Shown here one piece after another: positions 43,414 through 59,971 of a stretch of 64,000 nt of DNA. Made by a program: the position numbers and the translations under genes. Position 1 is the stretch's first letter, and each line of letters begins with the position of its first letter. The notes under the pieces are model-generated. The model saw only the letters and a list, made by a program, of their open reading frames with translations, was not told the origin of the DNA and made no database searches. Location: the NCBI RefSeq assembly GCF_055900595.2, contig NZ_CM148325.1. One strand, 5' to 3'.

Positions 43414-44648
43414 TCAAAACGCCATATTCAGTTTCCCGTAGTGGAACATCACGCCCAGCTTAAAGCGTTCCCGATTGCGGTATCCCCTGGCTTTTATCCT
43501 CAGCAGCCTGAGCTTACTGTTAAGCGCCTCCGCGTTTCCGTTTGAGACACGGTGTCGCATGGCATTCAGGATCCCATACAGCCTTTTTCCTATCGTTTTC
43601 GTGGCGTTTTTCATCATAGTAATGTCACTGTTGGCCGCCAGAGCCAGCAATCTCTCCCACTCATTACGTCTTTCCTCACTTCATGGCCTGTTCCAGATAT
43701 TCTTTGCCAGCTCTTTCAGCGCCCAGCACAGGCTTGTCAGCTTCATCTGTGCACGCAGCCATATCAGCTTTTCCTGCCTGGATTCGGTCATCCATTTATC
43801 GTTGTACTGCCACAGGAAGCGGGTCCCCTTTGCCTGACGCCGACTTTCAACAGGGAGGTGTGGATGTTCATCCTGACGGATTTTATCAACCACTTCACCA
43901 AGTTGCTTTGCTACATGGAAGCGGTCGAAGGCGATTTTCTCAACCGCACAGGGTAAGTGGATACGCGCTGCTCTTATACAGCCTGCATTCATGTCCATTG
44001 AGAGCGTTTTGATAGCCAGCAACTGCCCGTCAGTAAGCGTGCGAAGATAGCCGGCGAGGCTCTCTGTGCCACGATCGTCCGTTAAGGCCAGTGCACGACC
44101 ATCGCGATCGGAGATCACAGTTATATAACAATGTCCTTTTTTAAAGGCGACCTCATCCACATTCATATGACGGGCGGATAATGGCTTTTTTATCCGGGCA
44201 AGACCTCGCTTAACTGCCCGGGTCATAATGCCGTCAACCGCATTCCAGCTGAGCTTAAGTTGTTTCCTTACAGCATCAACAGTGCTGATTTTCAGCCATG
44301 AGAGAACGAGTCGAACAGCAGCGTATACCGCCTTCCGGGGCCAGCCCAGGGAACTAGCAACGTCTGGCAGCCATGCTCCGGGCACATAATGCGGGGCACA
44401 TCGGCTTCGACAATAGTGGTGAACTGGCAGATATCAAGATGACGCCATTTACGATGACGGTGATCGTGAACAGAACAGGATTTACCGCAGGTCGGACAGG
44501 CTAACCGGGCATTTTTAGCGATTCCAACTGTGACGGTAACAGAACCGGCGTTTTCATCGAGAGAAAGATATTTAACCTGCCATGGAGCGGTCAGGTTGAT
44601 AATATGAGCGTAGAGGGACCTTTCGTCCATGGCGGTGACCTTTGGCAA
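43414..44648 (-). pseudogene. ISL3-family transposase broken into three frames
   Basis: ORFs 44292-44648, 43681-44385 and 43414-43650 together resemble one ISL3 transposase. Confidence 0.7.
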
Positions 44649-44929
44649 TTAAAACACCATCATCATGCCTTCAGCCACCATAACAAGGGAAAACCCTGAT
44701 ATACGGCCTTAAAAAGATATTCCGTCTCCGGAACGGACTGCTCACCACTGAATAACATTATGCCTGTTTTATGTATCTTTGACTGAAATTTATCGCATAT
44801 CCTCATTTCATTGCCCGTATGAAAAGGTAAGCGAAAACCTACTGCCGTAGTAGCCATTGAGTAGTATTGGTAACATAGGTGCCAACATTTCAACTGATCT
44901 GCGCTAAGATCTTGGGTATTCTATGAAAA

Positions 44930-45700
44930 ATGTGGTAGTGCTTCCAATCAGTAGAACATGTTCTTTTCAATGACGGAACCGATGACTTTTTCGTTGATTT
45001 TCACGGAACGCGAGAAGCAGATTGTTTTACGTGCCAGCCGCTTGATGCGGGTGCGGAGGGGCAGGTTGTTAAGTTCAATAGGTTGCGTGAATATTTTACC
45101 GGTCAGGTATTTCTCCTTCGTCACTTCTCTGACGTTGCAGCCCCTGTCATTGCTGGTCACTATGCCGATATAGAACGAAGTCAACAGGGCTAACAGTTCC
45201 CGACAGGTCTCATCATTCCGTGGCCCGAAAGAATAAGCCAACACACCGCAGTTTTAGTGTTGTAAGCAGACCAGTGTTGTTGCGCCTTGCTGCCAACGAA
45301 ATTTAACTGCTCATCAAGTTTCAAAGATAAGGGCAACATCAGCGTGAACGACTGGCGTAGATGTTATCCGCCGGGGCGAAAACATTTTTAATGTCCGTAT
45401 GACGGTATTGATGCCGATTTTCAGTGTTCATGGGTATCACGGGCACCTGCGCCGTTATGTGCCATTTCAACGATCTGCTCCTTAACGCCGGGTTTCCTGA
45501 CTTCACCAAGAGTAAGTGAGCTGGAAAACATGTTTTACATGAGCGACAACGGAAACGCTCATCTCGGGAACGTGTTCTTAACGGTTAGACTGGCCCCCCT
45601 GAATCACCTGCAGTTGAAGGACAGTAACAGGTTAAGTGATAACAGATGTCTGGAAATATAGAGGTAAATCCAAGGAAGTGCCACTTTTCATCCGTTGTTG
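44930..45700 (-). mobile_element. Degenerate IS1-family remnant
   Basis: InsB-like C-terminal ORF 44948-45244 and IS1-like end at about 44930; no intact reading frames. Confidence 0.5.
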
Positions 45701-45938
45701 ACAATACAGCAAAACTTGATGCTATTCGTACGCCCACAATGGAATGTGGATTCAAACTGAATATTCCGTTTGTTGATATGAGTGATTTGGGCAACGGTGG
45801 CAACAAATAACTTTATACAGGAGCTGACGGTGTTTTCCTGATCATGCCGCCCATATTTTCTTCGGAGGTCGGGGACTTTCAATACCTTCCCCCGACACTC
45901 TATGACTTCACAAGATTGTCTCCATGACTGCTATGTGC

Positions 45939-46817
45939 CTACAGATGTTGCTCTCTGGTTGTTGTACTAGTCGGGAGATCCTGTGGATCGACATTTTCCT
46001 TCGCGTGAGCATTGATGCTGGAAGCGGTAAACGTCAGGATGAATACAACCGTGAATAAGATAACAATCGTTGGTGCTGGTGCGCTGTCTATAAAAAAGGA
46101 GAGCCATACACCAGTCATTGAGACCATTACCGATATACCGAGCGCCAGCAGGAGCGCAATATGAAAGCGTTGCGTCAGGAGTACCGCAATGGCGCCAGGC
46201 GCAATGAGCAGAGAAATGGAGAGAATGATACCTACCGCTTTCAGCGTCGCCACAATGGTCAGAGAGACCATGCACAGCAGCCCATAATGCAGCCATCTCG
46301 TATGCAAACCGCTTACCTGCGCCTGTTGATAATCAAAGCTGAACAGCAAAAAATCCCGCCATTTTACGCTAATAACAAGTGTAACCAGCCCGGCAATAAT
46401 CACCGTCTGGATTATATCGCCGATGGTTACCCCGAGCATGTCGCCGAAAAGAATATGGTCAAGATGTACGTCGGGTTTGACTGCAATATACAAGATCAGA
46501 CCTGCGGCAAACATGCCAGAAAAAACAATCCCCATCACTGAATCTTGCTTGATTCGGCTGTTGTCTTTCAGGTATCCCGTCGCCACCGCGCAGAATACTC
46601 CGGCGACGAATGCTCCTCCCGCCAGAGGAAAACCCAGTATCCACGCAAGCACGATACCAGGAAAAACCGCATGACTCATCGCGTCTCCCATCAGTGCCCA
46701 ACCTTTCAGGACCAGAAAGACCGACAGCAGCGCACAGGGTATGGAAACTACCAGTGAAATCAGCAGTGCGTGACTCATAAAGGTGAACTGCAGTGGCTCC
46801 AGTAATAATGCCATCAT
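45939..46817 (-). CDS. sitD: Mn/Fe ABC transporter permease SitD
   Basis: 292-aa permease, last gene of a four-gene operon. Confidence 0.85.
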   Translation of the reverse strand: MMALLLEPLQFTFMSHALLISLVVSIPCALLSVFLVLKGWALMGDAMSHAVFPGIVLAWILGFPLAGGAFVAGVFCAVATGYLKDNSRIKQDSVMGIVFSGMFAAGLILYIAVKPDVHLDHILFGDMLGVTIGDIIQTVIIAGLVTLVISVKWRDFLLFSFDYQQAQVSGLHTRWLHYGLLCMVSLTIVATLKAVGIILSISLLIAPGAIAVLLTQRFHIALLLALGISVMVSMTGVWLSFFIDSAPAPTIVILFTVVFILTFTASSINAHAKENVDPQDLPTSTTTREQHL

Positions 46818-58047: not shown

Positions 58048-58446
58048 AGTACGTGATGTCACCCACCCACTTCTGGTTCGGGCCGCTGGCGCTGAAGTCC
58101 TGCTCCAGCAGATTCTCCAATACGGGCAGGCCATGTGCACGGTAGCTGGCCGGGCTGAACTTCCGGCTGGCTTTCGCCCGCAGCCCCTGACGACGCAGGC
58201 TGGCGGCAATGGTTTTAATATTGAACTCCGGCAGTTCGTCAGCAAGGCGGGGAGCACCGTATCGCTGCTTTGCCTCAAAGAATGCCTTATGGACAGCGGC
58301 ATCGCAGGTGAGCCGAAACTGTTGGCGCAGGCTCATCTGGTGACGACGCCTGAGCCAGACATACCAGCCGCTGCGGGCAACCCGAAGTACACGACACATC
58401 GCTTTGATGCTGAACTCTGCCCGATGATTTTCGATGAAGACATACT

Positions 58447-58746
58447 TCATTTCAGGCGCTTCGCGAAGTATGTCGCGGCCTTTTGGAGGATGGCCAGTTC
58501 CTCAGCCTGCTCCGCCAGTTGTCGTTTAAGGCGGACATTTTCAGCGGCCAGTTCGCTTTCGCGCTCTGACGAACTCATTTGTTGCTGCTGTTTACTGCGC
58601 CAGGCATAAAGCTGAGATTCATACAGGCTGAGTTCACGGGCTGTGGCGGCCACACCGATGCGTTCAGCGAGTTTCAGGGCTTCGTTACGAAATTCAGGCG
58701 TATGTTGTTTACGGGGCTTCTTGCTGATTGATACTGGTTTTGTCAT
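58447..58746 (-). CDS. IS3 transposase OrfA (InsE-like)
   Basis: 99 aa; matches IS3 OrfA from memory. Confidence 0.9.
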
Positions 58747-59030
58747 GAGTCACCCTGGTTAAGAGTTTACTCACTTAGTCCTGTGTCCACTATTGGTGGG
58801 TAAGATCAGTATGCGCTTACAGTCAAAGGTGTTCTGACATGTATGCAAAACACTGGGACATTAACGCTTATCACACTCGCGTTGCCGACCTCTGCCAATT
58901 TGCGGCAATCAAGACAAAGAGTGCGACGGGCAGTCTCCTCCCTCAGACAGGTGTGTACGATGCGGAGACATAGTAAACACTTGTTCGGAGACATGGTTGA
59001 TACTTACAACTAAGGCATCAGAACCCGTTT

Positions 59031-59971
59031 ATGGAGCCGCTTATGCCCAGGGAAGCGAGAGATACCATGTCACTACGTTCTGAGTTTGTTCTGCCCGCCT
59101 TCAGCACGGTGCATAACCTGATGGCCCGCAATGGCCTTCTGCCCGGTCTGGTTGCGGCAGCCCCGGCGACGGGCCGCTTCGAACACGCCGAACCAGCTCT
59201 GGCAGATGGATTTTAAGGGGCACTTTCCCTTTGGCGGTGGACGCTGCCATCCGTTAACGCTGCTGGATGATCATTCCCGTTTTTCCCTGTGTCTGGCTCA
59301 CTGCGCCAATGAACAACGGACGACCGTGCAGCAACAGCTGGTCAGCGTATTTGAACACTACGGACTGCCGGACAGGATGCACCTGGACGGCACTGGAGTT
59401 ATGGCTGATGCGTCAGGGTATCAAGGTGGGGCACTCCAGCCCGTACCATCCACAGACGCAGGGCAAGCTGGAACGTTTTCACCGCAGTCTGAAGGCGGAA
59501 GTTTTGCAGGGTAAGTGGTTTACAGATGCGGGTGAGTTGCAGCGCGCCTTCGATCACTGGCGTACAGTCTATAATCTTGAACGCCCGCATGAAGCTCTGG
59601 ATATGGCTGTTCCTGCCTCACGGTATCAGCCGTCAGCGCGACAGTTCAGGAGCAATGTAGAGCCGCCGGAGTATGACGAGGGTGTGGTAGTCAGGAAGGT
59701 GGATATCAGGGGTAAACTGAGTCTGAGAGGTGTCAGTCTGAGTGCGGGCAAGGCATTCAGAAATGAACGCCTGGGGCTGAAGGAGACGCAGGAAGACGGT
59801 CAGTATGAAGTCTGGTGGTACAGTACAAAAGTGGGGGTGATCGACCTGAAAAATAAGTCGATCACCATGGCAAAGAATGTTAAAAAGTGTTCACCATGTC
59901 CCCGAACACCTGTCTACCATGTCTCCGGATCGTACACAGGTGAACCCGGGAGGGTCAGCGATGGATATTAA
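59031..59971 (+). pseudogene. IS481-family transposase (integrase core) in broken frames
   Basis: Motifs WQMDFKGHF...LLDDHSR...PYHPQTQGKLERFHRSLK across two frames. Confidence 0.65.

Follow-up and report, generated by a model that had tools for sequence, protein, structure and literature searches.

Genomic islands of Escherichia coli typically consist of gene modules separated by insertion sequence (IS) elements, an arrangement described as their norm (PMC11537424). In islands of the GI-pheV type, the modules shiF-iucABCD-iutA, sit, sodC, iha and ibrAB are set apart in this way by IS elements or their relics, and a P4-type tyrosine integrase is located at one end. Virulence plasmids of the ColV/ColBM type carry aerobactin and sitABCD cargo, together with IS1 and with the group II intron E.c.I4 inserted in IS629. 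E.c.I4 is an intron of bacterial class A and, according to its published description (Leclercq and Cordaux 2012, PMC3522654), all of its copies reside at specific positions in the transposase genes of IS629, IS911, ISEc16 and ISEc31. The present analysis concerns positions 43414 to 59971 of a 64,000-nucleotide stretch of contig NZ_CM148325.1 (NCBI RefSeq assembly GCF_055900595.2), hereafter the window, in which relics of several IS families and two copies of an E.c.I4-like intron are interspersed with the intact cargo genes sitABCD and sodC. With a probability of roughly 0.9, the region preserves, in fossil form, past traffic of mobile elements in a transferred virulence island of approximately 90 kb; it would have no function as a unit, and its cargo alone would be under selection.

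The window is part of an E. coli chromosome. The core genes gdhA to ynjB occupy the first 7.7 kb, and the remainder is a horizontally acquired island, whose cargo in the window comprises shiF-iucABCD-iutA (approximately 34-43.3 kb), sitDCBA, sodC and ibrAB. The closest complete genome is that of strain DG341-1, isolated from a chicken, in which the island measures approximately 90 kb and is situated between ynjB and ynjA; a tyrosine integrase adjoins ynjA, and transposase pseudogenes occur along most of the island. The 16.5 kb from 43414 to 59971 are 100% identical in DG341-1 and in many other genomes, and at least 80% of this region is found in 48 of 5,426 complete E. coli genomes, whose hosts include chickens, pigs and humans. 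In the identical region of DG341-1, RefSeq annotates all of the relic transposase genes as pseudogenes, and sitABCD and sodC as intact. The same relics occur in the same order in SMS-3-5, a genome from 2008, where they are inside an island at the pheV tRNA gene (tRNA-Phe) and have 99.8% identity to the window at the junction tested. Because the region is identical in many genomes and is also present in SMS-3-5 at another chromosomal site, the breaks in its genes predate the spread of the island. They are real, and they are inherited with the approximately 90-kb island. Two internal junctions are likewise shared, one joining IS110, IS200 and IS256 relics (53 genomes) and the other joining ISEc16, an older intron and an IS481 relic (32 genomes).

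Searches of open reading frame (ORF) pieces with NCBIfam profiles, on which the IS family calls are based, identified ISL3, IS1, IS110, IS200C, IS256, IS3 and IS481 between 43375 and 60236. This is in keeping with an initial annotation of the DNA, which had counted at least seven families in approximately 16 kb. The same annotation had placed a group II intron inside an IS3 element, and this holds to the base, although the nest proves deeper than described, with two intron copies. IS-A, an IS911-like element, encloses intron A; intron A encloses two neighbors, ISEc16 and an IS481-like element; and ISEc16 encloses intron B. The features of the nest are as follows (window positions, with the strand in brackets).

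54510 to 55205 (plus): IS-A, which forms the outermost shell; a decayed remnant of the 5' part of an IS911-like element (IS3 family) that stops just before the conserved DITY codons, with an approximate start
55209 to 55295 (plus): intron A (E.c.I4-like group II intron, the older of the two), piece 1; homologous to nucleotides 32-118 of intron B, with 90.8% identity
55296 to 58808 (minus): ISEc16 (IS3 family), inside intron A; both inverted repeats (TGATC...GATCA) are present, and the exons are 58048-58808 and 55296-55777
55778 to 58047 (minus): intron B, a full-length E.c.I4 group II intron of 2270 nucleotides, within orfB of ISEc16 between the residues ...GDITY and LRTDEGW
55868 to 57376 (minus): ltrA of intron B, with a TAG stop at 56150-56152 (W409*)
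58809 to 58951 (plus): intron A, piece 2; homologous to nucleotides 332-464 of intron B, with 82% identity over 58809-58940
58952 to 59938 (plus): relic of the IS481 family that retains an inverted repeat at each terminus (TGTGTACGAT...); the first approximately 118 amino acids of its transposase are missing, and the remainder is frameshifted
59939 to 60090 (plus): intron A, piece 3; homologous to nucleotides 483-759 of intron B, as far as the first reverse transcriptase codons, where it breaks off; 81-87% identity
60098 to 60236 (plus): small IS3-family scrap that closes the nest, known from RefSeq annotation only and located just beyond the region as first delimited

Intron B begins with GTGTG (58047-58043) and ends with AC (55779-55778), in agreement with the consensus 5' GUGYG and 3' AY. 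Its domains V and VI match Rfam family RF00029 at 55778-55864 with 64 bits (gathering score 40), and its reverse transcriptase/maturase matches TIGR04416 with 326.7 bits (cut-off 300). The intron has 98.3% identity over 1764 bp to the ykfC fragment of K-12, which PMC3522654 catalogues as E.c.I4-tr1 ('prophage CP4-6, fragment of 1764 bp'), and its near-identity to a catalogued E.c.I4 copy was established through this fragment. Plasmid copies with an intact ltrA are 98% identical to intron B and equal in length (2270 nucleotides), and they differ from it at 10 amino acids, including the premature stop. Because of that stop, the ltrA of intron B is a pseudogene; the resident maturase ends at residue 408 of 502, and its truncation argues against autonomous activity of the intron.

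The same intron, at 98% identity, is found on plasmid pF344-1 within IS629, at the homologous site between DFTY and V. In view of the site specificity reported in PMC3522654, the presence of these introns in ISs reflects specific retrohoming of E.c.I4 into a conserved IS3-family site, and not mere tolerance. Intron B thus resembles published E.c.I4 copies in length, in sequence (98% identity) and in its type of homing site in ISEc16, and differs from them in its truncated maturase. A further difference is that its ISEc16 host lies inside a second, older E.c.I4-like intron, and no such stacking of an IS within an intron within an IS was seen in the parts of PMC3522654 consulted. The supplement of that paper lists an ORF-disrupted E.c.I4 and a 132-bp fragment (E.c.I4-tr2) in the SMS-3-5 island; the piece at 58809-58940 is probably E.c.I4-tr2, and intron B fits the ORF-disrupted copy. 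The behavior of introns in ISs is therefore already published, RefSeq annotates every piece of the region, and nothing here is new in kind.

When intron B is removed in silico, ISEc16 is restored to 1243 bp and has 99.0-99.2% identity to intact annotated ISEc16 over 1243/1243 bp. The spliced element encodes orfA (99 amino acids) and orfB (288 amino acids), both of which are open and overlap in the normal -1 register, so the 'frameshift' that RefSeq reports in this transposase is the programmed -1 event and not decay. A weak match to the ALIL frameshift-pseudoknot family occurs at 58374-58474, with a score of 21 bits that is under the gathering score.

Intron A is 81-91% identical to intron B overall, and its pieces lie on either side of ISEc16 and of the IS481-like element, with both order and strand correct. 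Piece 3 contains what RefSeq annotates as a 'reverse transcriptase' pseudogene (60003-60089). IS-A has 76.6% identity to approximately positions 130-752 of an intact IS911-like element elsewhere in the window (11401-12658), contains frameshifts and stops, and matches positions 108-220 of an NCBIfam IS3 profile; separate pieces matched the IS3 profile with E-values of 6.6e-54, 7e-30 and 2e-14. An alignment to the reconstructed junction of IS and intron indicates that approximately 46 nucleotides spanning the IS-A exon and the 5' end of intron A have been deleted. The IS481-like insertion is clean, and intron A sequence is continuous across it. This relic retains inverted repeats of 54-69 nucleotides and matches positions 119-195 and 206-284 of the 284-position IS481 profile (E-value 3e-25). 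In contrast, ISEc16 interrupts intron A between the equivalents of nucleotides 118 and 332 without a target duplication, and therefore approximately 213 nucleotides were lost at the joint. A tblastn search of the closing scrap at 60098-60236 with IS911-like orfB returned no match.

These observations are consistent with a simple order of events. At the start, an IS911-like IS-A would have been present downstream of the sodC module. Its transposase gene would then have received an E.c.I4-like intron A by retrohoming, either at the conserved DITY codons or directly beside them. The IS481-like element and ISEc16 are both seen to have entered intron A, the former cleanly and the latter with the loss of approximately 213 nucleotides. 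The absence of a duplication and this loss together suggest an adjacent deletion at the ISEc16 joint, which is the presumed mechanism. A younger E.c.I4, intron B, would have retrohomed into the same conserved site in ISEc16, before or after the insertions into intron A. A TGG-to-TAG change would later have truncated its maturase, and deletions would have taken both ends of intron A. The finished mosaic would then have been passed on as part of the island, both by inheritance and by spread from strain to strain. Inner layers appear younger than outer ones: ISEc16 and intron B have 99% and 98% identity to intact copies, intron A has 81-91% identity to intron B, and IS-A has 77% identity to its intact relative.

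Some observations weigh against this account. ISEc16 lacks the 3-bp target-site duplication, and its flanks are GAG and GTA, although this concerns the history of the copy and not the identity of the element. The initial annotation had also proposed that related genomes would reveal the order of insertion. None of the 5,426 genomes in the collection (0/5,426) has an 'empty site' free of ISEc16, and because no such intermediate is preserved there, the order given above is drawn from nesting logic and divergence.

The left block of the region has a different history, and its features, together with those of the sodC module, are listed next.

43375 to 44703 (minus): ISKox3-like ISL3-family element, full length with both ends; its transposase gene is in three ORFs
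44935 to 45607 (minus): IS1-family relic with a recognizable right inverted repeat, an internal deletion and a frameshift; the left end is approximate
45939 to 49409 (minus): sitDCBA iron/manganese ABC transporter operon, intact, with four intact coding sequences in RefSeq
49583 to 50657 (plus): IS110-family relic (ISEc66-like) with one frameshift near codon 60-68, and without its last approximately 35 codons or its 3' end
50731 to 51118 (plus): left end of IS200C and the first half of its tnpA; nothing of the 3' half remains
51114 to 51922 (minus): 5' part of an IS256-family element; 51922 is a genuine terminus, and the element is cut internally where it meets IS200
51923 to 52424 (plus): fragment of a yagK/yfjJ-like island backbone gene and its upstream region, the DNA in which the IS256 terminus is set
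52465 to 52629 (no strand assigned): IS629/IS1203-type terminal scrap (IS3 family), with 87-94% matches to IS629/IS1203 ends on plasmids and chromosomes
52771 to 53295 (plus): sodC, encoding a periplasmic Cu,Zn superoxide dismutase of horizontal origin; intact and full length
53424 to 53648 (minus): conserved hypothetical ORF of 75 amino acids, annotated as intact in RefSeq (WP_001470144.1)

The initial annotation had described IS256 as inserted into IS200. Such a nested insertion should leave an entire IS256 flanked by the two halves of IS200, with a target duplication. Here, both elements are cut at 51114-51118, IS200 never resumes, and the true IS256 end abuts yagK/yfjJ-like DNA, so the nesting was rejected. 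Because both elements are truncated at the boundary and the true end of IS256 borders this backbone DNA, the boundary is a deletion joint, and the simplest reading would be that one deletion fused two elements that were once separate. Deletions, rather than nesting, probably brought the IS110, IS200C and IS256 relics together.

The sequences on each side of the joint agree with this reading. The IS200C relic has 94-97.7% identity to IS200C copies across exactly 50731-51118 and matches positions 2-75 of the 126-position IS200 profile (E-value 3e-25), and a search of the whole window with an IS200 C-terminal sequence detected no such coding sequence. At 50749-50870, the relic includes a match to STnc490, the small RNA (sRNA) of the IS200 5' leader (Rfam RF01405), which is full length (124/124 positions) and scores 133.7 bits. 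The IS256 relic matches positions 1-207 of the 338-position profile (E-value 7e-76) and has 90.4% identity to an IS256-family copy. It also aligns with a second IS256 copy in the window (29690-30497) as far as the end of that copy, with 85% identity overall. The adjoining fragment at 51923-52424 has 80-81% identity to window positions 23008-23461, which comprise the upstream region and 5' part of an annotated YagK/YfjJ gene, and it contains a RefSeq pseudogene at 52152-52406. Motifs of astA, the EAST1 gene carried by some IS1414-type IS256 elements, had no match in the window.

The ISL3, IS110 and IS481 transposases had each been called frameshifted, and their profile matches are indeed split among ORFs or frames that RefSeq annotates as pseudogenes. 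The ISKox3-like relic has 90.8% identity to an intact ISKox3 copy from end to end (1334-nucleotide alignment). Its transposase matches positions 2-78, 80-288 and 303-370 of the ISL3 profile in three separate ORFs (2-370 together, E-value 1.7e-43), and RefSeq remarks on both a frameshift and an internal stop. The IS110 relic has 81-84% identity at the DNA level to ISEc66-like copies and matches positions 2-76 and 69-318 of a 343-position profile (E-value 2e-61). When the ISEc66 transposase was compared to it by using tblastn, amino acids 1-68 and 56-312 of 339 aligned in two frames, with similarity fading past approximately amino acid 303. An Rfam scan at permissive thresholds revealed no match to the IS110 bridge-RNA family, nor to further RNAs. 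The IS1 relic, a RefSeq pseudogene, matches positions 128-199 of the 199-position profile (E-value 3e-13) and has 88.9% identity to an IS1-family copy and 72% identity to the other IS1 relic in the window. Two ISL3 relics flank the aerobactin operon and were considered as the ends of a composite transposon, but this candidate was rejected because they share no DNA similarity.

The intact genes of the region are its cargo. Only sitABCD and sodC had been considered intact; both are, but so is the annotated 75-amino-acid ORF at 53424-53648. This ORF, and the other small ORFs after sodC and in the spacers, have no match in Pfam, NCBIfam or PADLOC. The conserved sit cassette (45976-49502) has approximately 95% identity to plasmid alleles and other chromosomal sit alleles, and its homology ends at the same two points every time. 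ColV/ColBM-type plasmids therefore share with the island both aerobactin and a closely related sit cassette; they differ in that plasmid sit is located on the shiF side of iuc and in the flanking sequences. In the comparison, which covered two plasmid regions, neither the IS110/IS200/IS256 block nor sodC was detected on the plasmids.

SodC scores 218 bits (cut-off 165) against the equivalog NF007628. A total of 121 genomes carry the sodC module (52707-55229); the copy in strain MIN9 has 99.4% identity and lies beside different genes. Its breakpoints are sharp and recurrent, and the right-hand breakpoint, 55229, also occurs in MIN9. The IS-A fragment that ends at this position has 99.4-100% identity in approximately 230 of 266 matching records, including large plasmids of poultry and human isolates.

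The island as a whole resembles GI-pheV-type islands (PMC11537424) in its modules, in the IS elements and relics between them and in its terminal P4-type integrase, and the same mosaic is found in the pheV island of SMS-3-5. Its annotated content includes iuc/iutA, sit, sodC, iha, a YadA-like adhesin and the tyrosine integrase. It differs in location, being found between ynjA and ynjB in the window and in DG341-1, with no tRNA gene. No tRNA gene occurs within the window, and a search of both island ends found no pheV-like attachment repeat. The island thus has the virulence cargo, integrase and mobility relics of a tRNA-associated pathogenicity island, and is not integrated next to a tRNA gene. 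The integrase of the island at ynjA/ynjB, as seen in DG341-1, is 89% identical to that of the SMS-3-5 pheV island. The occurrence of one interior mosaic at both locations suggests either a switch of site or an exchange of the integrase module. A literature search on an island at ynjA/ynjB found nothing relevant. The left end of the island is at approximately 7722. From 7723 onward the sequence is approximately 100% identical to DG341-1, whereas the core genes gdhA-ynjB (1-7722) are just 91-97% identical. The ynj haplotype of the window is rare in E. coli, with matches of at least 99.9% in 8 of the 5,426 complete genomes and matches of 90-95% in 5,405. That the same island occupies one site in such divergent backgrounds suggests that it was transferred horizontally in recent times.

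In the favored explanation, successive transpositions and group II intron retrohoming would have placed elements in non-essential DNA, often within earlier mobile elements, where they carried no cost; later deletions and point mutations would have killed most of them, and selection would have kept the sitABCD and sodC cargo. The notion of a tolerant region with recurrent insertion, already present in the initial annotation, is borne out by dispensable DNA between cargo modules in which elements landed in one another. That annotation had also ascribed the pattern to relaxed selection, as in Shigella-like lineages. Ongoing, lineage-specific decay of this kind, in which ISs would be expanding and pseudogenes accumulating in the strain, is very improbable here. 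The island does contain three intact, strain-specific IS insertions with their own target duplications, one of which splits iucB, and iucD is frameshifted. Yet the 16.5-kb region lacks any of these fresh insertions, matches many of the 48 genomes from different hosts with 100% identity and recurs at the other locus in SMS-3-5, and only 9 places in the DG341-1 genome match anything in the 16.5-kb query. In Shigella, decay involves a few ISs, each of which is spread over the genome in numerous intact and nearly identical copies. The locus shares with Shigella the presence of pseudogenized mobile elements adjoining iron-uptake islands, but its relics are confined to the island, defective and shared unchanged by many non-Shigella strains. 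They belong to seven families, are mostly single copies in the window and are 2-23% diverged from their nearest intact relatives. A self-BLAST of the 64-kb window with the ISKox3-like, IS481-like and IS1-like relics revealed no close second copy of these three; the repeats of other relics in the window are the second IS256 copy and the 77%-identical IS911-like relative of IS-A.

It is also unlikely that the debris is partly functional, either through an ISEc16 that is gated by its intron and a maturase acting in trans, or through an IS200 leader that serves as a regulatory sRNA. ISEc16 has both inverted repeats, both of its ORFs are intact after in-silico splicing, ltrA copies that are intact and 98% identical exist on E. 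coli plasmids, and the STnc490 match is full length. However, the resident maturase is truncated, and ISEc16 lacks a target duplication and, as a fixed copy, occupies the same position in 32 genomes, which suggests immobility. The specific proposal that the element at 55296-58808 is still viable, and that a plasmid-borne E.c.I4 maturase could splice its intron in trans and so reactivate it, is slightly less likely. The chance that the transposases are really intact and only appear broken through assembly or sequencing artefacts is negligible. Sequencing error is excluded because the 16.5 kb are 100% identical across many independent complete assemblies, SMS-3-5 agrees at the junction tested, and the truncations are large structural joints rather than single-base errors. 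The broken frames reported at the outset are therefore real. The reading of the region as an inherited fossil record is retained.

Insertions that are more recent are found elsewhere in the window. Two intact IS10 copies (18597-19925 and 36112-37440) are 1329 bp each, are 99% identical to each other and have 9-bp target duplications (CACCCAGTA and TGCAGAGCG, respectively). Both are absent from DG341-1, and none of the best-matching complete genomes covered them. The copy at 36112-37440 splits iucB, and therefore aerobactin synthesis is probably lost in this strain, in which the receptor gene iutA is intact. As in Tn10, the copies lie in opposite orientations with the outside ends facing outward, and the 16 kb of island DNA between them include the YadA-like adhesin gene, shiF and iucA. 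The IS911-like IS3-family element at 11401-12658 is also intact (1258 bp), has a 3-bp duplication (CAT) and is found only in this strain. It includes a full-length match, of 145 bits, to the Rfam sRNA family isrC.

Several neighboring features were also observed. The iucD gene (39789-41122) is frameshifted near its 3' end, which leaves an ORF of 425 amino acids that RefSeq annotates as a pseudogene, and it is identical in DG341-1. The frameshift is probably present in other carriers of the island, and the aerobactin operon may already be impaired throughout the island family. Three tandem 99-bp repeats that are 94-95% identical occur at 27388-27901, upstream of or within the YadA-like adhesin region. 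Beyond the nest, positions 60503-62358 carry intact ibrA, which is PAPS-reductase-like and weakly matches BrxP and DndC domains in PADLOC, and intact ibrB, which is ParB-like. Relics of IS66 and IS100 follow ibrAB, and the field of relics therefore runs to the end of the window.

The significance of the region beyond bookkeeping is little. In practical terms, the sit and sodC cargo is intact, and the annotated 'frameshift' of ISEc16 is the normal programmed one. If ISEc16 were indeed gated by its intron, the activity of mobile elements in the island would depend on plasmid carriage. The shared junctions could serve to mark this island so that it can be traced between strains. The nest is a base-resolved example of mobile elements that act as safe landing sites for one another, in four layers (from the outside inward: IS, intron, IS, intron), and it illustrates that pseudogene-rich stretches of virulence islands can be old, stably inherited scars and not signs of current decay.

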